DNA of 64,000 nt. Source: Escherichia phage vB_EcoM_ESCO32. The position numbers were made by a program, and so were the translations under genes. The notes below the pieces were generated by a model, which searched no databases, was not told the origin of the DNA, and saw only the letters and a program-made list of their open reading frames with translations. Shown piece after piece: positions 2,345 through 53,041 of the stretch; the stretch's first letter is position 1; every line of letters begins with the position of its first letter. The stretch is taken from the sequence record OM386658.1; one strand, 5' to 3'.

Positions 2345-2734
2345 TTAATATTCGTTATAATACATCGCTAACTTTTCATCAAAAGCCGATTGACGATCTG
2401 CATACTCCCAAAACATTTCTTGATCCTGTTGTTCGTCATCATCCATCATGTTGAATTGCGCAACCTCCTGGTAAGTGATCGCCATATTATAACGATAGGT
2501 GATCTCTTCTGCGATGTTTTCCGGTAAAGATGATTCTACACTGTCTAACAGCATATTTAACATCATTTCAGCCGCTTTTTCATCATTATCAAAGCAGTAA
2601 GCAGACCATGCCGCATGATGTTTATTTTTCATCTTTGCAATCAAGCCGTTGACTAAAAAAGGCGCTACGTTGTTAACGATACCCTGTAAAGATTGGAATT
2701 TTTCAACGTTAGAAACAGAAACCAGGTTGCGCAT
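2345..2734 (-). CDS. hypothetical early protein (129 aa after start trimming)
   Basis: ORF track frame 2345..2770; track start lies inside the leader hairpin; in-frame ATG (MRNLVSV) with AAAGG RBS chosen. Confidence 0.5.
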   Translation of the reverse strand: MRNLVSVSNVEKFQSLQGIVNNVAPFLVNGLIAKMKNKHHAAWSAYCFDNDEKAAEMMLNMLLDSVESSLPENIAEEITYRYNMAITYQEVAQFNMMDDDEQQDQEMFWEYADRQSAFDEKLAMYYNEY

Positions 2735-2757
2735 AGTATTTACCTTTTTGATTACCT

Positions 2758-2816
2758 GGCGGGAAACCATTTCCCGCCTACGTGGTAAATAATACCATAT
2801 TGGGGATCGGTGTCAA
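2758..2816 (-). promoter_or_regulatory. early promoter plus leader stem-loop cassette
   Basis: minus strand TTGACA-16 bp-TGgTATTAT then GGCGGGAAAtggTTTCCCGCC (2758-2778). Confidence 0.6.
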
Positions 2817-2822
2817 TACTTT

Positions 2823-3209
2823 TTATTCAATATAAATCAAATTATCTTCACCAATGTAAGCATGCACCGATGGCATTAATTTAGCTGCATTTGTTAGGCG
2901 GTTGGCGGTGTTAGTAGTGTATATTTCAGGGCGATCCCAAAAGCCTACGCCGTGACCGTTACGGGTGAAATGTAAGTCATTCCCGATCTGGTTTGCTGTT
3001 GCGCCGTCGCTCATTGCCTCAGAGATAGCAGCATCATTGGCATCACAATAAGCCGCTACGTCATGAATGATCCGCTGATGGGCTTGATCTGAAAAATCAT
3101 AATCGTCTAAGTTATCAATAAAATAGCCTTCATGATCCCTGGCGGATTCAGCAAAAATAAAGGCTTCTTTATAACCGTTGATGATTTCAATAATGATTTC
3201 AGTTTTCAT
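2823..3209 (-). CDS. hypothetical early protein (128 aa)
   Basis: ORF track; ATG start overlapping the stop of the upstream gene (translational coupling). Confidence 0.55.
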   Translation of the reverse strand: MKTEIIIEIINGYKEAFIFAESARDHEGYFIDNLDDYDFSDQAHQRIIHDVAAYCDANDAAISEAMSDGATANQIGNDLHFTRNGHGVGFWDRPEIYTTNTANRLTNAAKLMPSVHAYIGEDNLIYIE

Positions 3210-3421
3210 GCTGTACGCTCGACAATAATAATGGTTTGCGGTATCTCGTTTTCTACTACTAACAAGGCTTTTTTCTGTGTGATAGATATTTTAACACGTT
3301 GTAAAGTAGCGGTAAAATCTTTCATTTCATTATGCGCGGATTTAGTGCAATGCCATATTTCAGGTTTACCAATTTGCAAGCCGCGTAAAAATTCTGTTTT
3401 ACCTGTCTTATTCGTGATCAT
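3206..3421 (-). CDS. hypothetical early protein (about 71 aa)
   Basis: ORF track frame 3206..3439 (TTG in track); in-frame ATG (MITNKTGK) with AAGGTG RBS preferred. Confidence 0.45.
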   Translation of the reverse strand: MITNKTGKTEFLRGLQIGKPEIWHCTKSAHNEMKDFTATLQRVKISITQKKALLVVENEIPQTIIIVERTA

Positions 3422-3431
3422 TTGATTCACC

Positions 3432-3536
3432 TTATCCAATACCGTGGGAAGATAGGATCATGTTAGCCATAGTTGCAACCAATCCAACCGATAACACCAG
3501 GCCAACTACTACAACCGTGAAAATTTTCTCTAACAT
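3432..3536 (-). CDS. possible small hydrophobic peptide (34 aa)
   Basis: ATG with GAGGG RBS directly downstream of a promoter/hairpin cassette; MLEKIFTVVVVGLVLSVGLVATMANMILSSHGIG; below the ORF-track size cut-off. Confidence 0.25.
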   Translation of the reverse strand: MLEKIFTVVVVGLVLSVGLVATMANMILSSHGIG

Positions 3537-3554
3537 GATTCTACCCTCATTAAT

Positions 3555-3616
3555 GGGCGTTGCCTTATTGCCCCGCCCTATGTCGTACACTTTACCAGAT
3601 AACTGAATATTGTCAA
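3555..3616 (-). promoter_or_regulatory. early promoter plus imperfect leader stem-loop
   Basis: minus strand TTGACA-16 bp-TAAAGT then GC-rich imperfect palindrome GGGCGGGGCAAtaaggCAACGCCC. Confidence 0.5.
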
Positions 3617-3617
3617 A

Positions 3618-3812
3618 CTATTTTTTACAAGGGATCAGTAAACTTCTTGCTACCGCTTCACGTAAACCTTTACTTTTTATTAAATCTATTGTTGCAGGGT
3701 GGCAAGTAAAAGCCTTTGACCATTTTTGATCACCTGGTTTACGGGCGAAAATGTAAACTTCTCCGTCGATTTCATCCCAACGAGTATTGCTTGTTAGTTT
3801 TTTAAGCGCCAT
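3618..3812 (-). CDS. hypothetical early protein (about 64 aa)
   Basis: ORF track frame 3618..3842; track start (GTG) falls in the leader hairpin; in-frame ATG (MALKKL) chosen. Confidence 0.45.
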   Translation of the reverse strand: MALKKLTSNTRWDEIDGEVYIFARKPGDQKWSKAFTCHPATIDLIKSKGLREAVARSLLIPCKK

Positions 3813-3833
3813 GCTGATTTCTCTTTTAGTTAT

Positions 3834-3892
3834 GAGCGGCACTATTGCCGCCCTACGAAATACATTCTACCCGATTTATAATTGTTGTCAAA
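3834..3892 (-). promoter_or_regulatory. early promoter plus leader stem-loop cassette (variant B)
   Basis: minus strand TTGACA-16 bp-TAGAAT then GGGCGGCAatagTGCCGCTC (3834-3853). Confidence 0.55.
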
Positions 3893-4162
3893 CTATTTTT
3901 TCAAGCTCGACCAGTCAAAACACGGGGCGATCTCGTTAAAACTTGTGCCCTGTAAAGCACATAATTTTTTAGCAATAGCCGCCGTGACCTGGCGCTGTAC
4001 GCGCGGATCTGCTACTGATTGGAGAAAGTAGGCGGCTTTATATGTGATCATGCTTTCGCCTGTTTCCTTGTTAACGTGGTGCACGGTTTTAGCCTTATCA
4101 TCTTTTACCAGGGTGTAACCGGATTCGATGGCCTTGATTGCAACGTCCAATGATATTTTCAT
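3893..4162 (-). CDS. hypothetical early protein (89 aa)
   Basis: ORF track; ATG preceded by AAGAGATAA-type sequence and hairpin. Confidence 0.55.
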   Translation of the reverse strand: MKISLDVAIKAIESGYTLVKDDKAKTVHHVNKETGESMITYKAAYFLQSVADPRVQRQVTAAIAKKLCALQGTSFNEIAPCFDWSSLKK

Positions 4163-22591: not shown

Positions 22592-23068
22592 ATGTCTAAA
22601 CGTTTTGGTCGTAATCAAAAAAGAAAGTTAAGTGCTCAACTAGCAGCTTTGCAAAAAGAGGTTAACACTTTACAAAAAAGTGTTTGTGAACTTAAGGAAC
22701 AAAACCAACTTGAAAAAGAGTGTATCCAGCTTACACAGGAAGTTATTGGTGAGTATTTTCCTTCACTAGTTCCTAAGAAGGTGGCTCTTAGGGAAAATCT
22801 ACCTTTTACCTTGTCCTTAATGCAAGCAAATGATAGATTCCAAACTGAAACTGATGATTTGATGTTTGCAATGCATCAATTACATGGTTTAGAATATACA
22901 GCACAAGTGGATAAACTTCGTAACATGTTATATGTGCGGGTAGAAACACCTAAAGGTGAGACAGTAGCTTTTAATTATAATTTCCAACAGCTACCTGATC
23001 ATATTATTGAACAAATTTTAAAACGAGATTTTGTTCCTATGCTTGTTAAACAAATTAAGAGAGGTTGA
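22592..23068 (+). CDS. hypothetical coiled-coil protein (158 aa)
   Basis: ORF track; AGGGGGAAA RBS; heptad-like N-terminal region. Confidence 0.55.
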   Translation: MSKRFGRNQKRKLSAQLAALQKEVNTLQKSVCELKEQNQLEKECIQLTQEVIGEYFPSLVPKKVALRENLPFTLSLMQANDRFQTETDDLMFAMHQLHGLEYTAQVDKLRNMLYVRVETPKGETVAFNYNFQQLPDHIIEQILKRDFVPMLVKQIKRG

Positions 23069-23069
23069 A

Positions 23070-25844
23070 ATGGCTAAGAAAGAGTTGAGCTTCACTCCGA
23101 CAGAAGAGCAAACAGCTATTAAGGAGGCTTTTCCAGACCATCGCTTTTTAACTATCCAAGCTAAATCTGGGTCAGGCAAAACGTCAACACTTTATTTGCT
23201 GGCTAACAGTACAGAAGATCGCATTCTTTACTTAGCTTTCAATAAAAGCATGGCAGAAGAAGCACGACGTAAGATGCCACTAAATGTAGAATGCCGTACA
23301 TTGCATTCTATTTGCTATCAATTCCTGGATCATCGTTTACGTGCAAAACTGTCACGACCAGAAGGACAGTATGTTAACGTTGCAGGTACAGGTAGTGAGA
23401 TAGCAAAGAAATTTAAGATTAATAATCTTATTGATAAACGAGGGAAAACACTTTTAACTCGTGCTATGATCGGTTTAATGATCAAGCAAACCGTAGGTAA
23501 GTTTGAATTTTCGGATGATCCTTTTATCAGCCGTAAACATTTTCCTAGTGTACATCTTGCAGATATTAAAAGAAAAGGTATTAACGAACACAAACTAATT
23601 ACAGAAGTAGTTAAGTATGCAAAACAATTGTGGCGAGAGCGCATCGATCCTAACACAGACACTTTGATGACGCATGACACCTATGTAAAATTGTTTGAAT
23701 TATCTGGTGCTGATCTTGGTTATGATATTATTTTTGGTGATGAATTCCAGGATGTTAACCCTGCATTCTTATCTATTCTGCGAAATGCTAAATCTGCAAA
23801 ACAAATTGTGGTAGTGGGCGATGAATTCCAATGTGTGTCGGAAAACACGGTACTTAATACCGAGAATGGTCAGGTTACAATGAAAGACCTGCAAATCGGT
23901 GATAAGGTAGAGTCTTATTCTAATGGTAAAGTTACATTTAGAAAAGTAACAAATAAGACTTTATCTACACGTACAAAAGGTAGGAATATTATTACTGCCA
24001 CAGGTAAAACTTTAGATATGACACATAACCATCGTATTTGGGCTTCATCCTATGTTCTGAAAGATGATCAGATGGTGGTATACCTAATGTGGAGGAAAGA
24101 TTTAGGTTTCCGAGTAGGGATCACTAACAAATTCGATGATAAAGAAGGTTTTTCTAAACTGGGGCAACGTACACGTTCTGAAAAAGCACAGAAATTGTGG
24201 GTGTTGGATATTGTTGAAAACCGTGAAGCTGCTATGGAAAAAGAAATGGCATACAGTTTACAATATGGCATTCCTACTTGTGTATTTGAAGCAAGTTCAC
24301 GCGGCATTAATCAAGAAAGGATCAATAACATTTTTGAACAATTCGGACAAAACGGTTTTAAACTTTTAGAGGATAAAGATTATCATTTTGCTTATCCACA
24401 TTGGCACAGCATCAATTGTGCAGTAGATGAAAGAAAAATGTTAACAGTGACTTTGCGAGCACAAGGTTGTAAAGGAACACAAGTTAGTTTTGAGTGGACA
24501 GAAAGTGAAATGTCAATCTATGCTTCACTCATTGAAGCAGGTGTAAGCGTAAGTGTTGCTAAGTTGGAAGGTCGTTACCGTGTACGTAAATATTTCAATT
24601 CTTATCGTGAAGCATTGAGTTTTGCACAAAAGATCCTTGAAATAGTGCCGTTTGCATCTTTAAAAGAATGCATGTCCTCTGTGAACACCGCCAAATATAC
24701 TTTAATTCCGGCGGCGGGTTTGTTTAAAGGCATGTCTGTGTTGGTAAAAGATGGTGATACTGTAACGGCAGAAGAAATTGTGGACATTGTAGATAGTGAA
24801 GGTATCTATTATGATATTGAAGTAGAGGATACTGCTAACTTCTTTGGCAATGAAATTCTTAGCCACAACTGCATTTATCAATTTAGAGGTAGCTCTAATA
24901 TGATGATTGAAACAGCTAAGTATGGGGCAGAGCTTCCATTAACTGCTTGCTTCCGTTTTGGCCCCAAAGTGGCAAACATTGCCAATATGATTTTAAGCGA
25001 TAAAGAACCTTTGCGTCATCCTTTGGTTGGTAAAGGCTTTGATACTGTAGTAGGTAGCTACAAATCAGATGTTGTAGACTATACAAAACCTTACACTATC
25101 ATCTTTCGCAAGAATTTAACCTTGCTTATGGAGGCAATGGATCGTATTGCAGATGGGGAAGAAATTATTATTAACGTAGACACCAGGGATTTTATCTCTA
25201 TGGTAGATAGTGTTAATGCTCTTCGGAGAGGAGATATTGAGAAAGTAAAACATGAAACTGTATTACCTTACGCAGACTGGGATGAATTTGTTGAGTGTGC
25301 AGAGGCTGATCCAGATGCTAAACGCTTGTTAAACATTGTAGTTTCTGGTAAGGCAAACACTATAGCACATACACTTAGAACGCATAGAAATTCTCCTACA
25401 GCAAAAGTCACACTGACTACAGCACATAAGTCTAAAGGTTTGGAGTGGGATCAGGTTATTGTTGCTAATGATTTTCCTTCCAATTATGATAAAAAGACTG
25501 GTGAGTGGGTAGGACTAGAAGAGGCAGAGCGAAACCTACTGTATGTAGCGCATACCCGTTGTGTTAAATGCTTACAATGGAACACAACCGTACAGGAGAT
25601 TATAGATATCAACCGTGTTGCAACAGAGAAAGTACCAACAAGCACCACTTTACCGATCAATGGTATTAAACTTGGTGTATTTGGCGCTGGCACATCTCGA
25701 AAAGCTGTAGAAAAATTTGTTGCAGATTCTTTTGATGGTAACTATAATCATGCACAAGCATATGAGAGTTGGCTAGAGGAAGGTGAAGGTGATTTTTTAG
25801 GTGAAATAAATCTTTTACCAGACATAAATAAACTGGTAAACTAA
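23070..25844 (+). CDS. UvrD/PcrA-like SF1 DNA helicase interrupted by an intein
   Basis: ORF track frame 23031..25844; Walker A AKSGSGKTS; motif III split as VVVGDEFQ / [intein] / CIYQFRGSS; motif VI TTAHKSKGLEWD. Confidence 0.85.
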   Translation: MAKKELSFTPTEEQTAIKEAFPDHRFLTIQAKSGSGKTSTLYLLANSTEDRILYLAFNKSMAEEARRKMPLNVECRTLHSICYQFLDHRLRAKLSRPEGQYVNVAGTGSEIAKKFKINNLIDKRGKTLLTRAMIGLMIKQTVGKFEFSDDPFISRKHFPSVHLADIKRKGINEHKLITEVVKYAKQLWRERIDPNTDTLMTHDTYVKLFELSGADLGYDIIFGDEFQDVNPAFLSILRNAKSAKQIVVVGDEFQCVSENTVLNTENGQVTMKDLQIGDKVESYSNGKVTFRKVTNKTLSTRTKGRNIITATGKTLDMTHNHRIWASSYVLKDDQMVVYLMWRKDLGFRVGITNKFDDKEGFSKLGQRTRSEKAQKLWVLDIVENREAAMEKEMAYSLQYGIPTCVFEASSRGINQERINNIFEQFGQNGFKLLEDKDYHFAYPHWHSINCAVDERKMLTVTLRAQGCKGTQVSFEWTESEMSIYASLIEAGVSVSVAKLEGRYRVRKYFNSYREALSFAQKILEIVPFASLKECMSSVNTAKYTLIPAAGLFKGMSVLVKDGDTVTAEEIVDIVDSEGIYYDIEVEDTANFFGNEILSHNCIYQFRGSSNMMIETAKYGAELPLTACFRFGPKVANIANMILSDKEPLRHPLVGKGFDTVVGSYKSDVVDYTKPYTIIFRKNLTLLMEAMDRIADGEEIIINVDTRDFISMVDSVNALRRGDIEKVKHETVLPYADWDEFVECAEADPDAKRLLNIVVSGKANTIAHTLRTHRNSPTAKVTLTTAHKSKGLEWDQVIVANDFPSNYDKKTGEWVGLEEAERNLLYVAHTRCVKCLQWNTTVQEIIDINRVATEKVPTSTTLPINGIKLGVFGAGTSRKAVEKFVADSFDGNYNHAQAYESWLEEGEGDFLGEINLLPDINKLVN
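23832..24869 (+). mobile_element. intein (346 aa) inside the helicase
   Basis: begins CVSENTVLNTENG (block A), contains TxxH block B (MTHNHRIW) and ends VEDTANFFGNEILSHN followed by +1 Cys; in frame with host protein. Confidence 0.8.
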
Positions 25845-46840: not shown

Positions 46841-48613
46841 GTGTCTTATGTTGTAAATAAATATGGGTATAACATTGACCTAAGTCAAGAAGGACATACT
46901 GGGTGTCCTCGTTGTATGAAAGGAGGGCGTGATCGATCACAAAACAATTTGATGGTATATGGCTTAGATGCCGATGAAGACCATCGAGGCGCACATTGTT
47001 TTTCTTGTGGCTTTACTATCCCTGATCAAAAATGGTTAAATGCACACGGTGAAGAAATTGAAGAGGAGGATATCTTGGGTAGTGAGTTTAATCCAGAAGT
47101 ACATGATAAACTAAAAGCCAGCACTGGAACTAATCCAAAAGGTTATCGCGGTATTCGTGAAGATATCTCTAAACCTTTCGGTGTACGCTATATGTACGAT
47201 GAAGCTACTGGCGAAGTAATTTCAACACTATACCCTACAACTAAAGATTACAATATTGCTGGGTATAAACAACGTATCGATCCAAAAGATTTTTCGCATC
47301 CTATTGGTGAAACAGGAAAGGATTGTGATCTTTTTGGTGAGTTTAAATATCGTAACCACAGTGGTACTATTCTAATCGTTGGTGGTGAACACGATATGCT
47401 GGCTGCAACACAGATGCTAAAAGATTATAACAAGGGCGGTAAATATCCTGTTCCTGCTGTAGTGTCTGGTACTTGTGGCGAAACATCTCTGCATAAGCAG
47501 CTTCAACATCGTTATAAATTCTTAGATCAATTTAAAAAGATTGTTCTGTGTATGGATAATGATGAAGCTGGACGTGCAGCAGTTGAGAAATGTGTTAAAA
47601 TCTTACCACGTAATAAAGTTTACGTGATGGAACTAACGGATGTTAAAGATCCTAACCAGGCACTAGTAGAAGGAAAAATTGATCATTTTATTGATCGCTT
47701 TTTCAAAGCTAAATTGTACACACCTGCTGGTGTTTACGCTTCTAACGTACTGTATGAAGCAGCCTTGGAATGCCTGGAAGCTAAAATGATCACCCTTCCT
47801 CCATTCATGCGTGTTGCTTCTAATATGTTAGGTGGAGGCTTGGTAGAAGAAGAAATTACTGTTATACTTGCAAAAACAAGTATCGGTAAGACACTGTTGG
47901 TTAACGAGATTACGAAACACATTATTCTTGCACACCCAGAACATACTCTTGGTATTTTATCTTTGGAGGCAACGTATAAGAAGTATTCTCGTAACTTGCT
48001 GTCTTCATTCTTGCATATCCCTCTTCACCGTAAAACAAAAGAAGAGAAGGAAAAGATTTTAAAAGATAATGAAGAAAAGATTCGTGATTTTTACGAACGA
48101 GAAGATGGAACACCACGTTTCTATGTTTGTGATGATCGTGGGGCTAACGTAGATGTGATTAAAGAGAAGGTTCTGGAAATGATTATTTATTTCGGAGTAA
48201 CCATTCTTGTTATCGACCCTTATTCTGACTTGCTTTCTGGTATGGACGTGTCACAACAAGAGGAACTTGCGACGTGGCTGAAACGCATTATGAAAGAGTA
48301 CGCAATAACCATTGTTGTAATTTCACACGTTAAAAAGTCTTCTAACAATAGTAATGAACATATTGTAGAAGATGATGCAATGGGTAGTAGCTTCCTTGCT
48401 AAAGGTGCTGGTATCACAATTGCGCTGGAGCGTGATAAACAAGCTGAAGATCCTATGGAACGTAACCGCACATATTGCTACATTCTAAAGAACCGTGAGT
48501 TCTCAGAGACTGGTGCAGCAGGTAGTTTCTTCTATGAGATTAAAACAGCTACACTTCACGATTACGATCAATACACAAGTAACCCAGAAAATATTTCTGC
48601 TGGTTCTTATTAA
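46841..48613 (+). CDS. bifunctional DNA primase-helicase (T7 gp4-like)
   Basis: ORF track 590 aa; GTG start after AGGAG; zinc ribbon CPRC...CFSCGF; Toprim-like LIVGGEHDMLAA / MDNDEAG; DnaB-type Walker A AKTSIGKT. Confidence 0.85.
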   Translation: MSYVVNKYGYNIDLSQEGHTGCPRCMKGGRDRSQNNLMVYGLDADEDHRGAHCFSCGFTIPDQKWLNAHGEEIEEEDILGSEFNPEVHDKLKASTGTNPKGYRGIREDISKPFGVRYMYDEATGEVISTLYPTTKDYNIAGYKQRIDPKDFSHPIGETGKDCDLFGEFKYRNHSGTILIVGGEHDMLAATQMLKDYNKGGKYPVPAVVSGTCGETSLHKQLQHRYKFLDQFKKIVLCMDNDEAGRAAVEKCVKILPRNKVYVMELTDVKDPNQALVEGKIDHFIDRFFKAKLYTPAGVYASNVLYEAALECLEAKMITLPPFMRVASNMLGGGLVEEEITVILAKTSIGKTLLVNEITKHIILAHPEHTLGILSLEATYKKYSRNLLSSFLHIPLHRKTKEEKEKILKDNEEKIRDFYEREDGTPRFYVCDDRGANVDVIKEKVLEMIIYFGVTILVIDPYSDLLSGMDVSQQEELATWLKRIMKEYAITIVVISHVKKSSNNSNEHIVEDDAMGSSFLAKGAGITIALERDKQAEDPMERNRTYCYILKNREFSETGAAGSFFYEIKTATLHDYDQYTSNPENISAGSY

Positions 48614-49109: not shown

Positions 49110-52100
49110 ATGGGAGCTTTTACTTTCGACATTGAAAGTAACAACTTGCTTAATGACGAAAGTGTAGATTACTTGGCAAGTCCATATCGTTTAAAAGATA
49201 GTTTTGCAATGCACTGTATTGTGTGCGAAAGTCATGATACTGGAGAGATTATTGCTTTCCATGATGGTGATAAATATCTTTTCGATGGTCGTCCGTATGT
49301 TGAGACTGACGGAAAGTATGAATACCGACTGGAGGAATATGAGCATTTAGAATATACCCATTTCCCTCTTAAAGATTTTCCTGATTTTGTAAATGGAACA
49401 GGTAAATTTAAAGGTAATTCAAACTATAAAATTACCAAAGTAGTTGGACATAACATCATTAACTTTGACTTACTGGCAATTAAATTATTTTTTAAACTCA
49501 ACTACAGTATTAAGTACAATACTTGGGGTAATAGTAACATTGAAATTTGTGATACTATGATCTTAAGTAAGACACTAAACCCTGATCGCTTCGGTGGTCA
49601 TAGTCTGGCAGAGTTATCTAAGAAGGCTGGAGGGGATGTTAAAATTGATTTTAGAAAAAACATTCCTGAAACTGAAAGATTTAAAACATTTGCAGCAGAT
49701 ATGCTGTATTACTGTATTTACGATAACAAAGCTAACACCGCAGTGTTCCGTTATTTGATGGAAGAGTGGGGTGATTATAATAAGTGGTCTGAACCATTTA
49801 ACTTAGAACAACGTGTAGCTGATATTATTACACGTCAAGAGCACCGTGGCTTTGCTTTCAATATGAAACAAGCAGAAGATAATATTCGTGATCTGGATGC
49901 TCGAATGGAAGCATGTCGTTTAGAGGCAGAACCTGTGCTACCTCCTAAACCTGCTACTAAAGGTTATTTGAAATCATTCATTCCACCTAAACTACAGTTT
50001 AAAAAGAATGGTGAACCTTCAAGTAACATGATAAAGTTTGCAGAGAAACATTCTGGTGAACTTGTACAAAAAGAAGATGGTTGGTGGCTATTTGCATTAG
50101 GTAAAGAGTTTAAACTACCTATTCCAGCAGAAGAACCTATTTGTGATCCTACAGTACCTGCTACTTTAGACGACACTACACATATTAAAAACTGGTTAGT
50201 TGGTTTAGGTTGGAGTCCATCTGAATATAAAGATAAAGATATCACTCTTAAATCTGGCACTAAGATTAAGAAAGATGAAGCACAGATGGAGAAAGCTATT
50301 CGTGACTATGTTGATCAAACGTTAGCATCTAATTTCTGCCAGGACAGATGTGATCATCTGGAGTGCACACCAGAAACTTTGGAATGGAAACTAAGAGATC
50401 GTATTGCTAAAGCTAAAGGTCGTGGTGTTAAAGTGCTTACTAACCCTTCCTTTACAAAAGGGCAAGAGAAAGATATTTGTCCTAACTTGGAAGCACTAGG
50501 TGAAAAGTTTCCTTATGCTACGCAGATTGTGCAGTATCTTACGTATAAACACCGTAGGAACTCTATTCTAGGGGGTGGTGCTGATTGGGAAGAAGATGAA
50601 GAGGATTATGATAAAGGTTATCTGGCAGCAGTAAGGGCTGATGGTCGTATACCAACTCCTGCTGCAACGTGTGATGCAGCTACGTCTCGTATGAAACATA
50701 GGTTAGTAGCAAATATCCCACGTGTAACATCTCTGTACGGATATGAAATGCGTAACTTATTTGGTGTAGAAGTTCCAAAATACTTCCAAATTGGTTATGA
50801 TTTTGATTCTCTTGAGGCAAAAATAGAATCACACTACTGTGTACCTATGGATGCACAAGCACTAACCCGTAAAGGTTGGGTTGGTTATCACGATCTACAA
50901 GAAGGGGATGAAATCTTAGGATATAACCCAGAAACAGGACTTAAAGAATGGACTAAAGTAAAAGGTAAGGTCTTCTATAAAAATAGTAAGACGTTTGAGA
51001 TTAAAGGAAAATCCCATACTTACCGTGCAACAGCAGATCACCGTTGGTATGTTAATACCCGTAGTAAAGGGAATACTTATGTGCCTAAAGTCAGAACAAC
51101 TGCCGAGCTTTGCACAGGAGATAATATTATTTGTAATGCTCCATTTAACATGGAACAAGATCAGGTAAATAGTTTAACTTCTGTTCAACAAGGTAAATGG
51201 GATGTTCCGTGGGTAGAGCGTGTAGTTAATATGTCTCATGCCGAGCGTGTAGCTTTCTTGGAAGGTTTCTTGATTGCAGATGGTTACTGGCATGAACATA
51301 AACAAAAACCTGTTTGGCGTTGGGCGCAGAACCCAGGTGAACTTTTTGAAGCAGCTTTAACTGCCTCGTACCTGGTGCATGGAGGCAATATCTCTGTAGC
51401 TTTCAATACAAAAGAGCAGAAAGTAAAAGTGGCAACATTGGCTAACCGCTCTCACATTCCTGTTCAAAGTTTGACTATTGAAGAGTGGGGTGTAGAGGAT
51501 GTTTGGTGTCCACAAACAGAACTTGGTACGTGGGTCATGCGTCAGAAAGACTGCATTACCATCACAGGAAACTGTTGGCGGTACGAGCAGGAACCACACG
51601 AATATTGTAATGCTCTATTATTGGAAAAACCTAATGATGTTCATACAATGATGGCTCGACGTATTTCTGACACTATTGGTCGTAAGTTTGAACGAAGCCC
51701 TGCTAAATCTGTTAAGTATGGTATTACTTATGGTGCTCAAGCTGCAAAAGTAGCAAAAACTATAGGTAGTGATATGTATACCGGACAGCTTGTATACGAT
51801 GCTTTCTGGGAAGCTGCAAAACCTCTTGCGCTTCTTAAAGAACGTCTGCATGACTTTTGGGTTAAAACAGGTAAGAAATACATTCTGGGTATTGATGGTA
51901 GGAAAGTACCTACACGATCTGCACACGCAATACTTAACTCTCTGTTCCAGAGTGGTGGTGTTATTTGTGCAAAAAGAGCAATGGTTATCTACGACGATCT
52001 TATCGAAGAAGAAGGATTAGCTGTTGACTTTTTTGTTGATGACTGGAAAAATAAGTCATTCGTTCAACAAATGATTGCATATCACGATGAAGCACAGCTT

Positions 52101-52424
52101 GAAGTAACTCGTGATCTGGTGCATTTTAAATGGTTCTCTAAAGAATCTTTAGGTTGGACTCAAGTTGATGATCCAGAAGAACAAAAGAAAATTGATAAAG
52201 AATGTTTGGATAAAGTTAATGCCTGGAAAGAAGAGGAAGAGAAACGTACTGGCAAGATTTGGGCTAACGTACATGAATCTCCGAAAGGTGGTTGGTTTAC
52301 AGCCTACAGTCGTGCTGGAGAATTAGCATCTATCGCTGTTAATAAAGCTGGTGAGTATTACAATCTTAATGTACCTCTCACTGCTGGTTACGATGTTGGT
52401 AACTCATGGGCCAGTTGTCATTAG
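49110..52424 (+). CDS. family-A DNA polymerase (T7-like) interrupted by an intein
   Basis: ORF track 1104 aa; exo FDIESNNL; motif A DFDSLEAKIESHY; post-intein CWRYEQEPHEY...DVHT parallels T7 pol as recalled; motif B KYGITYGAQ; motif C YHDE. Confidence 0.9.
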   Translation: MGAFTFDIESNNLLNDESVDYLASPYRLKDSFAMHCIVCESHDTGEIIAFHDGDKYLFDGRPYVETDGKYEYRLEEYEHLEYTHFPLKDFPDFVNGTGKFKGNSNYKITKVVGHNIINFDLLAIKLFFKLNYSIKYNTWGNSNIEICDTMILSKTLNPDRFGGHSLAELSKKAGGDVKIDFRKNIPETERFKTFAADMLYYCIYDNKANTAVFRYLMEEWGDYNKWSEPFNLEQRVADIITRQEHRGFAFNMKQAEDNIRDLDARMEACRLEAEPVLPPKPATKGYLKSFIPPKLQFKKNGEPSSNMIKFAEKHSGELVQKEDGWWLFALGKEFKLPIPAEEPICDPTVPATLDDTTHIKNWLVGLGWSPSEYKDKDITLKSGTKIKKDEAQMEKAIRDYVDQTLASNFCQDRCDHLECTPETLEWKLRDRIAKAKGRGVKVLTNPSFTKGQEKDICPNLEALGEKFPYATQIVQYLTYKHRRNSILGGGADWEEDEEDYDKGYLAAVRADGRIPTPAATCDAATSRMKHRLVANIPRVTSLYGYEMRNLFGVEVPKYFQIGYDFDSLEAKIESHYCVPMDAQALTRKGWVGYHDLQEGDEILGYNPETGLKEWTKVKGKVFYKNSKTFEIKGKSHTYRATADHRWYVNTRSKGNTYVPKVRTTAELCTGDNIICNAPFNMEQDQVNSLTSVQQGKWDVPWVERVVNMSHAERVAFLEGFLIADGYWHEHKQKPVWRWAQNPGELFEAALTASYLVHGGNISVAFNTKEQKVKVATLANRSHIPVQSLTIEEWGVEDVWCPQTELGTWVMRQKDCITITGNCWRYEQEPHEYCNALLLEKPNDVHTMMARRISDTIGRKFERSPAKSVKYGITYGAQAAKVAKTIGSDMYTGQLVYDAFWEAAKPLALLKERLHDFWVKTGKKYILGIDGRKVPTRSAHAILNSLFQSGGVICAKRAMVIYDDLIEEEGLAVDFFVDDWKNKSFVQQMIAYHDEAQLEVTRDLVHFKWFSKESLGWTQVDDPEEQKKIDKECLDKVNAWKEEEEKRTGKIWANVHESPKGGWFTAYSRAGELASIAVNKAGEYYNLNVPLTAGYDVGNSWASCH
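50838..51572 (+). mobile_element. intein (245 aa) with LAGLIDADG-type homing-endonuclease motif inside the DNA polymerase
   Basis: starts CVPMDAQALTRKGW (block A), TADHRWY (block B), LEGFLIADGYW (LAGLIDADG-like), ends ITGN followed by +1 Cys; inserted right after polymerase motif A. Confidence 0.7.
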
Positions 52425-52453: not shown

Positions 52454-53041
52454 ATGGTATATGGTCATGGTATTTTTGATGGAGATTTTACTGTAAGATC
52501 TCCTAGAGGAACTATGCACCCTGCTTATATGAAATGGATGTCTATGTTGGGGAGGTGTTACTCCCCTTGTCAACAAGAACGTGATCCTTGTTATAATGGG
52601 GTGACAGTTTGTGAAGAATGGAAGTTGTTCTCCAATTTCTATTCCTGGTTGCAAACTTGGGATGACTGGGAAAACTTAGAACTTGATAAAGATATTATAG
52701 GAGGGAGAGTTTACTCTCCCAATACCTGTCTTTTAGTAACAGGAGATCTTAATAAGTTCTTAGCTTATAGAGTAAGTAAAAGATCTCATGGGACTATGGT
52801 GGGATGTAGTTACGAGAAAGATCGTAAAAAGTATAAAGCCAACATAAAAGTAGGCGGTCGCATGAAAACGCTGGGACGTTTTAATACTGAAATTGAAGCG
52901 CATCTTTGTTGGTTGAAGGCTAAGGCAGAACAGCTTACAAAATTCTTTGAAACTGAAGATGAAAGAGTTGTTCCACATCTTAAAGCACTATATAATGAAA
53001 TGCTTGAGCATGTAGAACAACACAAAGAGTGGACACGATAG
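52454..53041 (+). CDS. AP2-domain DNA-binding protein (possible homing-endonuclease-related)
   Basis: ORF track 195 aa; AP2-like GCSYEKDRKKYKANIKVGGRMKTLGRFNTEIEAHLCWLKA; N-terminal Cys/Trp-rich region of unknown type; no HNH or GIY-YIG motif seen. Confidence 0.6.
   Translation: MVYGHGIFDGDFTVRSPRGTMHPAYMKWMSMLGRCYSPCQQERDPCYNGVTVCEEWKLFSNFYSWLQTWDDWENLELDKDIIGGRVYSPNTCLLVTGDLNKFLAYRVSKRSHGTMVGCSYEKDRKKYKANIKVGGRMKTLGRFNTEIEAHLCWLKAKAEQLTKFFETEDERVVPHLKALYNEMLEHVEQHKEWTR

Follow-up and report, generated by a model that had tools for sequence, protein, structure and literature searches.

Here we describe an intein in the DNA polymerase gene of Escherichia phage vB_EcoM_ESCO32 (sequence record OM386658.1), of which a stretch of 64,000 nucleotides (nt), the window, was analyzed. 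The gene is an open reading frame (ORF) at 49110..52424 (+) that translates to 1104 amino acids (aa). Within it, 245 codons (50838..51572, +) very probably constitute a functional, horizontally mobile intein in the polymerase of phi92-like phages. The insert has exact boundaries, is present in some relatives and absent from others, adopts the intein fold in a structural model, keeps its catalytic residues throughout a large family, is under purifying selection and was recently transferred between phage genera. We infer from these features that the polymerase precursor undergoes protein splicing. The order in which the nucleophiles act, and the activity and dimerization of a putative nuclease, are treated conditionally below.

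As an object the polymerase intein is already known: records of sister phages annotate it, and elements of its kind are ordinary. The interest beyond the known annotation lies in its mobility between genera, in a family that hidden Markov models (HMMs) miss, in a mixture of class 1 and class 3 residues, and in a LAGLIDADG domain with one motif.

An optional insert with an intein fold

A preliminary description of this DNA, made from the sequence alone, had placed a LAGLIDADG-motif intein in a T7-type family-A DNA polymerase, just behind motif A. Translation of 50838..51572 gives exactly the 245 in-frame residues that it quoted, beginning CVPMDAQALTRKGW, containing TADHRWY and LEGFLIADGYW, and ending ITGN. 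The boundaries, from Cys1 to Thr243-Gly244-Asn245, are chemically correct. The N-extein (49110..50837, +) comprises the 3'-5' exonuclease part together with the N-terminal portion of the polymerase and ends at motif A (GYDFDSLEAKIESHY); the residues directly N-terminal of the insert are DFDSLEAKIESHY. The C-extein (51573..52424, +) begins with the +1 residue, a cysteine encoded by TGT (51573..51575, +), and runs through CWRYEQEPHEY...DVHT, motif B (KSVKYGITYGAQ) and the motif C region to the stop codon.

Without the insert the polymerase has 859 aa, and its alignment to T7 gp5 (1skr_A and others) is unbroken across the junction (E 7.6e-21), which bears out the placement directly after motif A. 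The spliced sequence qigYDFDSLEakieSHY|CwRYeq pairs with qagIDASGLElrclAHF MaRFdn of T7 DNA polymerase, so that DFDSLE faces DASGLE in motif A. Further downstream ndVHT pairs with gdIHT, and AKsvkYGitYGA of motif B pairs with AKtfiYGflYGA. The Pfam model DNA_pol_A matches the C-terminal part (aa 839-1002) at 42 bits against a cut-off of 34.3. This is the only replicative DNA polymerase gene found in the window. It is 98-99% identical to the genes of UAB_1, VEcB, cardinal, PaulScherrer and phi92 (phi92-like; Justusliebigvirus, Stephanstirmvirinae).

Intein-free alleles, for which the preliminary description had suggested a search, occur in close relatives. The polymerase of phage ALITA lacks exactly these 735 nt. 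Its flanks are 99.2-99.4% identical to those in the window (99.4% over the N-extein), and its protein reads ...AKIESHY|CWRYEQ... across the empty site. For ALITA, outra, muut, alia, EmilieFrey and others the match covers 78% of the query only, in two pieces that together span 2580 nt, which is 3315 minus 735. The polymerase stretch around the empty site in ALITA and EmilieFrey reads GAATCACACTACTGTTGGCGGTACGAG. A 200-nt query across the empty site found it uninterrupted in about 100 records. The same query matched 36 more places than records, a surplus expected where the two halves of the query stand 735 nt apart. A translated search found the intein itself in 34 records at an amino-acid identity of at least 90%. 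The codons of Cys1 and of the +1 residue are both TGT, so DNA alignment alone leaves the boundary ambiguous by 3 nt.

An AlphaFold2 model of the insert, built on nine relatives, has the intein (HINT) fold, with a predicted local distance difference test (pLDDT) of 79 and a predicted template modeling score of 0.78. The best Foldseek matches are endonuclease-bearing inteins, TliVMA (E 1.4e-7) followed by PI-SceI, PhoVMA and PI-PfuI. More than 40 structures of mini-inteins, Hedgehog domains and BIL domains come next, at probability 1.00, and the matches include the class 3 inteins AceL NrdHF, MchDnaB-1 and MsmDnaB-1. The N-terminal lobe of the HINT domain (aa 1-100; 50838..51137, +), whose beta-strands have a pLDDT of about 90, holds block A (Cys1, CVPMD..ALT..GW) and block B. 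The core of block B, T65-A-D-H68-R-W70 (51030..51047, +), supplies Thr B:7, His B:10 and Trp B:12, in block positions as defined previously (PMC2807308). The C-terminal lobe (aa 213-245; 51474..51572, +) holds block F (DVW-C224-PQTELGTWVMRQ) and block G (ITI-T243-G244-N245). In a profile of nine sequences, blocks A and B align to the Spl DnaX, NrdJ-1 and AceL NrdHF inteins, which fixes the register of the Thr-x-x-His motif; the profile reaches an E of 1e-4 against solved mini-inteins. A search of the PDB with the single sequence gave marginal matches only.

Two results weigh against the assignment. Pfam Intein_splicing (PF14890) reaches only E 0.028 and 14.7 bits against a cut-off of 35.8, and no intein model of NCBIfam matches the insert. 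Pfam LAGLIDADG_3 is likewise below threshold on the insert (E 0.15), and a PHROGs search returned nothing for the intein. That curated intein HMMs stay under their thresholds would suit an insert that is no intein, that is, a lineage-specific subdomain of the polymerase or an inactivating insertion in a pseudogene. We give this explanation practically no weight, because it is already contradicted on several sides. Polymerases that are 99% identical lack the insert exactly to the nucleotide; the preliminary description had named a subdomain conserved in intein-free relatives as the finding that would overturn its proposal. The insert has an intein fold, its splice-junction residues are all invariant, the same element is found in unrelated proteins, and its frame has stayed open and is subject to purifying selection. 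An insert that is sporadic, precisely bounded and optional is not a polymerase subdomain. Its precise and optional nature, the modeled fold and the boundary residues that are invariant in relatives together uphold the identification as an intein.

A large family with class 1 and class 3 residues

The intein belongs to a large and essentially undescribed family whose members are missed by standard HMMs. A word-indexed protein search, which returned nine relatives only, is too narrow to reveal the family, and an exhaustive profile search is needed. Run against 1.84 billion cluster representatives, such a search recovered 7849 relatives below an E of 1e-3, of which 3187 were below 1e-10 and 552 below 1e-30. 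Of the 157 best matches, 126 align to the entire profile along a single uninterrupted segment of 221-282 aa. Another 25 or so contain an additional segment of roughly 100 aa, have two LAGLIDADG motifs and measure 314-374 aa overall. There are also a few minis of 140-165 aa that have no LAGLIDADG half-domain, among them P0005, P0008 and P0009 (142-163 aa); P0005 differs from its 245-aa sister P0002 essentially by the clean loss of this half-domain. The existence of natural minis shows that the half-domain is dispensable for the splicing fold.

The splicing residues were counted in 127 compact representatives that are mutually less than 50% identical. Cys at position 1, Thr at B:7, His at B:10, Cys at F:4, Thr at G:5 and the terminal Asn are present in all 127. 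Trp at B:12 and Gly at G:6 are each present in 126, the one exception at G:6 being Ser. The +1 residue is Ser in 65 representatives and Cys and Thr in 31 each.

Family members are inserted mostly in phage replication proteins. The sites include motif B of family-A polymerases (...AKTFIYA|...|TLYGAG), the motif A position seen in the window (...EAHY|...|TYKYDNG; P0036, P0043 and P0061), a polymerase site TGR..H|SPN..IP, the TOPRIM motif of primases and a small FDVYP|SAYANGW protein. At the TOPRIM site the metagenomic sequences P0153, P0115 and P0099 have family inteins in the arrangement ...GGKY|intein|CLIVEGEHDALAAYQ. The primase/helicase of the window (46841..48613, +; motif ...HSGTILIVGGEHDMLAATQ) is intein-free at the homologous site.

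Relatives with two motifs and the family signature occur in the portal and tape-measure proteins of Gordonia phages, in Pseudomonas phage KIL1, and in nieznany, ukendt and nepoznato. In KIL1 the polymerase coding sequence (vB_PsyM_KIL1_0103) is annotated as a two-piece join and contains a two-motif family intein (GKT|CLPVDS...VTITGN|CNYAS). The translation meets a stop further downstream, and the join probably handles a different interruption. Four records labeled as Campylobacter phages, MG065639, MG065645, MG065656 and MG065689 (A150, A145, C3 and A110a), are 146 kb in length and have a Phapecoctavirus-type polymerase with a motif B intein. In identity, E-value and score these 'Campylobacter jejuni' records are indistinguishable from nieznany and ukendt, which are E. 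coli phages, and their host labels look doubtful.

The usual penultimate His is not present and its place is taken by Gly244. The preliminary description called this a non-canonical C-terminal junction. The glycine is real, but it is no anomaly of this copy. The intein of gp51 of mycobacteriophage Bethlehem, a recombination directionality factor/metallophosphoesterase, also has a penultimate Gly, and in E. coli its splicing goes to completion (Kelley et al. 2016, PMC5050341). Its G316H mutant needs over 5 h for about 50% splicing, and its endonuclease is toxic in E. coli, so that only an inactivated clone was recoverable (PMC5050341). The gp51 intein (317 aa, Cys95 to Asn411, consistent with the G316 numbering of that paper) matches the family profile distantly, with domain scores of 20.9 and 11.6 bits. 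Given this precedent and the near-invariance of Gly in the family, the penultimate Gly is the family norm and no defect.

The other residues expected of an intein are present: Cys1, Asn245, Cys+1 and T65-A-D-H68 of block B. Superimposed on them is the complete Trp-Cys-Thr (WCT) triad of class 3 inteins, formed by Trp70 (two residues after His68), Cys224 and Thr243. Class 3 is recognized by Trp B:12, Cys F:4 and Thr G:5, with His G:6, Asn G:7 and a +1 residue at G:8 in the prototype (PMC2807308; PMC5222942). The 21 residues from Cys224 to Asn245 equal the spacing in Msm DnaB-1 (Cys118-Asn139) and Mle DnaB (Cys124-Asn145) (positions from PMC5222942). Class 3 inteins, however, have no N-terminal nucleophile (PMC2807308) and do not conserve B:7 (PMC7891396), whereas here no member departs from Cys at position 1 where Cys, Ser and Thr should all be missing.

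Two routes of splicing can be drawn from this signature. We consider it probable that the reaction starts as in class 1, with Cys224 assisting or relaying, and this start is favored by the invariance of Cys1, Thr B:7 and His B:10. The 1104-aa precursor, interrupted between motif A and the fingers, would excise the intein and join ...ESHY to CWRY..., giving an 859-aa polymerase whose junction is identical to that of intein-free relatives. Cys1, aided by Thr65 and His68, would form the N-terminal thioester. The N-extein would then pass to Cys+1, perhaps via or with the assistance of the block F cysteine, Cys224, which is placed with Trp70 and Thr243 where class 3 inteins hold their catalytic triad. 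Asn245 would cyclize without a penultimate His, Gly244 being the normal residue of the family. Against a firm choice of this order stands the fact that sequence alone cannot tell which cysteine attacks first.

The other route is that of class 3 itself. Cys224, activated by His68, Thr243 and Trp70, would attack the N-terminal junction first and form a branched thioester at block F; the N-extein would move on to Cys+1, and Cys1 would be dispensable or have another role such as redox control. The full triad at the defining positions, His-to-Trp and Cys-to-Asn spacings equal to those of proven class 3 inteins, and the retrieval of three class 3 structures by Foldseek all speak for it. We nevertheless judge it unlikely. 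Both Cys1 and Thr B:7 are universal in the family, Cys at +1 is rare in class 3 (PMC5222942), Cys at F:4 also occurs in class 1 inteins, where it is polyphyletic (PMC3196547), and the related gp51 intein is treated as class 1 (PMC5050341).

Mobility and the single LAGLIDADG half-domain

Comparison with phage ESCO5, which belongs to another genus (Phapecoctavirus), gives nucleotide identities of 72.6% for the N-extein, 96.5% for the intein and 78.8% for the C-extein. Over about 51010..51510, some 500 nt, the two inteins are approximately 99-100% identical. In PaulScherrer, of the same genus as the phage studied here, the order is reversed: the N-extein is 98.9%, the intein 95.2% and the C-extein 99.3% identical, and the intein falls to 91-94% in its 3' half. 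The corresponding values for KP13-16 are 73.8%, 77% and 80.2%. These identities show that the intein has had a history separate from that of its host gene, a hallmark of recent horizontal transfer. The GC content at third codon positions is 31% in the intein and 25% in the exteins. The first 30 nt of the ESCO5 C-extein match the window at 24 of 30 positions and nieznany, which is intein-free at this site, at 13 of 30. This is suggestive of a short co-conversion tract; there is no intein-free phage close to ESCO5.

Selection has maintained the whole element. The intein differs from that of PaulScherrer by 32 synonymous and 3 non-synonymous changes, a ratio of non-synonymous to synonymous rates (dN/dS) of 0.022. 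The endonuclease-like part (aa 101-205) has 17 synonymous and 2 non-synonymous changes (dN/dS 0.026). The low dN/dS throughout argues that the splicing domain and the endonuclease-like part are both kept.

The LAGLIDADG assignment of the preliminary description holds for the LEGFLIADGYW motif and for the fold around it, while only one of the usual two motifs is there. The motif, L141-E-G-F-L-I-A-D148-G149 (51258..51284, +), lies in a single half-domain of about 97 aa (aa 116-212; 51183..51473, +) with the order alpha-beta-beta-alpha-beta-beta. The second motif of the nieznany intein, LEAFWMADGH, aligns with LEGFLIADGYW, and the window intein is without the region of the first nieznany motif (FLGWLLSDGYY). 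Within the 127 family members an acidic residue (Asp/Glu) is found at 148 in 123, Gly149 in 124, a small residue at 143 in 125, Gln164 in 125 and Lys120 in 116. The conserved Asp, Gln and Lys are reminiscent of the active site of I-CreI. Compared with known structures, the half-domain scores 8.5 with the endonuclease domain of the TliVMA intein, 8.3 with WhiA, 7.6 with I-Tsp061I, 6.5 with I-DmoI, 6.2 with I-CeuI, 5.8 with I-MsoI and 4.8 with I-CreI.

A LAGLIDADG nuclease requires two half-domains. For an intein with one motif that is conserved, selected and widely spread, the simplest solution is a homodimer of two intein molecules. From the sequence we tentatively propose that the half-domain is such a homodimeric nuclease, a reading that may quite well be correct but that we do not hold with confidence. 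The intein DNA would spread between co-infecting phages. The likely driver would be the half-domain of the intein itself: two intein molecules would pair into a two-site nuclease and cut intein-less polymerase alleles, and recombinational repair would then copy the intein in. A fusion with I-CreI placed in the Mxe GyrA mini-intein, engineered by Fitzsimons-Hall and colleagues in 2002 (cited in PMC3943268), reportedly kept both activities, so a homodimeric intein nuclease is physically possible.

Several points weigh against this proposal. To our knowledge every LAGLIDADG nuclease of an intein that has been characterized biochemically or structurally has two motifs in one chain. The intein-less target has no palindromic symmetry: its best center pairs 6 of 11 positions, a value that shuffled sequences commonly reach. 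For the idea of a homodimeric nuclease this result says nothing or counts slightly against it. WhiA, which is not a nuclease, scores level with the nucleases. The identity between genera could also reflect ordinary recombination in mixed infections and not homing driven by a nuclease.

These points bring in the alternative that the intein is competent for splicing and that its nuclease part is dead or is a non-nuclease remnant, left by the loss of the first half-domain. Spread would then depend on general recombination in mixed infections or on hitch-hiking on breaks made by other homing endonucleases of these phages. We regard this as rather improbable, although it accounts simply for a single motif where the 32%-identical nieznany paralogue and other relatives have two, and it agrees with the non-palindromic target, with the WhiA-like folds and with the free-standing HNH endonuclease gene beside the polymerase (52454..53041). 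The half-domain is, however, selected as strongly as the splicing domain, and it retains the acidic residue, Gly149 and Gln164 in nearly every member. The one-motif form has also colonized many sites and proteins, and a decaying remnant would not be expected to do this. True minis exist, so the half-domain is not being kept because splicing requires it. The neighboring HNH gene, moreover, occurs with and without the intein.

Neighboring elements, earlier annotation and known systems

The gene directly downstream of the polymerase (52454..53041, +) encodes a free-standing homing endonuclease of the HNH/AP2 type (phrog_953, E 3e-76); a Pfam search with its product gave no match. In ALITA it is absent, and the polymerase and the nucleotidyltransferase gene lie only 140 nt apart. 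Collaborative homing of this gene with the intein was considered and rejected: the gene is present in the intein-free phages alia, EmilieFrey, KKP_3264, PHB05 and ESCO8 and missing from the intein-bearing ESCO5. Its sporadic occurrence in phages of both kinds shows that it is not coupled to the intein.

A second intein in the helicase of the window, also noted in the preliminary description, is indeed a separate, unrelated and canonical one. It occupies 346 aa (aa 268-613; 23832..24869) of a UvrD-type helicase ORF (23031..25844, +), has canonical junctions (GDEFQ|CVSENT...ILSHN|CIYQFRG) and an Asp at block F:4, and is not matched by the family profile of the polymerase intein. Paula, JLBYU50, 92CQ and similar relatives lack exactly its 1038 nt. 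ALITA has the helicase intein and no polymerase intein, so the two assort independently.

The GenBank record of Escherichia phage PaulScherrer (MZ501100, bas60_0044, BASEL collection) names the gene 'intein-containing DNA polymerase precursor', as does the polymerase of phage SD2. PaulScherrer has this very element at the identical site, with an amino-acid identity of 98.8%. Its mat_peptide feature 'intein' corresponds to window 50841..51575 (3232..3966 of the compared PaulScherrer sequence), one codon downstream of the boundaries given here, and would begin with Val and end with Cys. The shift likely arose because both flanking Cys codons are TGT, so that the indel can be placed either way. 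In most sister records the gene goes by 'DNA polymerase I' or 'hypothetical protein' alone. The paper on the BASEL collection says of its inteins that they were identified by comparative genomics and no more; intein-bearing phages such as PaulScherrer are viable isolates (PMC8594841). A 2024 paper states that no coliphage inteins have been reported so far (PMC11162368), which the GenBank annotation contradicts. Our literature search found no paper that analyzes the residues, family or endonuclease of the polymerase intein, that links inteins with phAPEC8, or that treats family-A-polymerase phage inteins of this type, and no description of one-motif LAGLIDADG inteins.

Taken jointly, the invariant class 1 apparatus, the class 3 triad and the Gly-Asn end of the family may mark the progenitor state of class 3 or a two-cysteine relay, and the half-domain of the compact form may act as a homodimer. 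This joint reading is possible, on balance doubtful. If it is true, the family would be a surviving instance of the phage-borne progenitor that has been suggested for class 3 inteins, or an intein type that hands the N-extein on through two cysteines, and the compact form of about 245 aa would be the first natural homodimeric homing endonuclease of an intein. The family bears on the origin of class 3 from class 1, since nature keeps both residue sets although an experimental graft of WCT onto a class 1 intein was unsuccessful (PMC7664689). It also bears on whether an intein may carry a one-motif homing nuclease that forms dimers. Coliphage replication would need protein splicing of the DNA polymerase and, separately, of the UvrD-type helicase, and the polymerase intein is still moving between phage genera. 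For annotation, the mislabeled sister genes can be corrected, as can the one detailed annotation that is a codon off. Compact inteins of about 245 aa and minis of 140-165 aa without a penultimate His are possible parts for protein engineering if they splice fast.

Among the closest known systems are the paralogues. The intein of nieznany, ukendt and nepoznato (Phapecoctavirus; also in AV126) has 324 aa and two LAGLIDADG motifs, and lies at about 2501..3472 of the compared nieznany sequence. These paralogues and that of KIL1 share with the window intein CVP.D..., T..H.W, (V/F)(W/F)C, TGN|C and the host gene. The nieznany-group intein sits elsewhere, inside polymerase motif B (KSVKYG|...|TYGAQ), where its +1 Cys replaces the Ile of intein-free alleles; the same phages have Thr and not Cys at the empty motif A site.

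The gp51 intein and the window family have in common Cys1, TxxH (T-A-N-H in gp51), VWC with Cys at F:4 (E-V-W-C in gp51) and Thr-Gly-Asn. The gp51 intein ends H-L-T-G-N|S, with Ser at +1. It differs in having Val and not Trp at B:12, in its two-part, full-size endonuclease region, and in its host protein and phage group. Class 3 inteins, namely those of mycobacteriophage Bethlehem DnaB, Msm DnaB-1 and Mch DnaB-1 (Tori et al. 2010, PMC2807308), share the WCT residues, their spacing and a phage-borne setting. In most of them the penultimate residue is His, and the +1 residue is Ser or Thr, whereas the window intein has Gly at G:6 and Cys at +1.

With respect to the endonuclease, PI-SceI, PI-PfuI and TliVMA resemble the window intein in overall plan, a HINT domain into which a LAGLIDADG fold is inserted between block B and block F. 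They are monomeric and have two half-domains per chain, whereas the window intein has one. I-CreI, I-MsoI and I-CeuI are natural one-motif homodimers. These are free-standing, intron-encoded enzymes with pseudo-palindromic targets, unlike the window intein, whose target is not palindromic.

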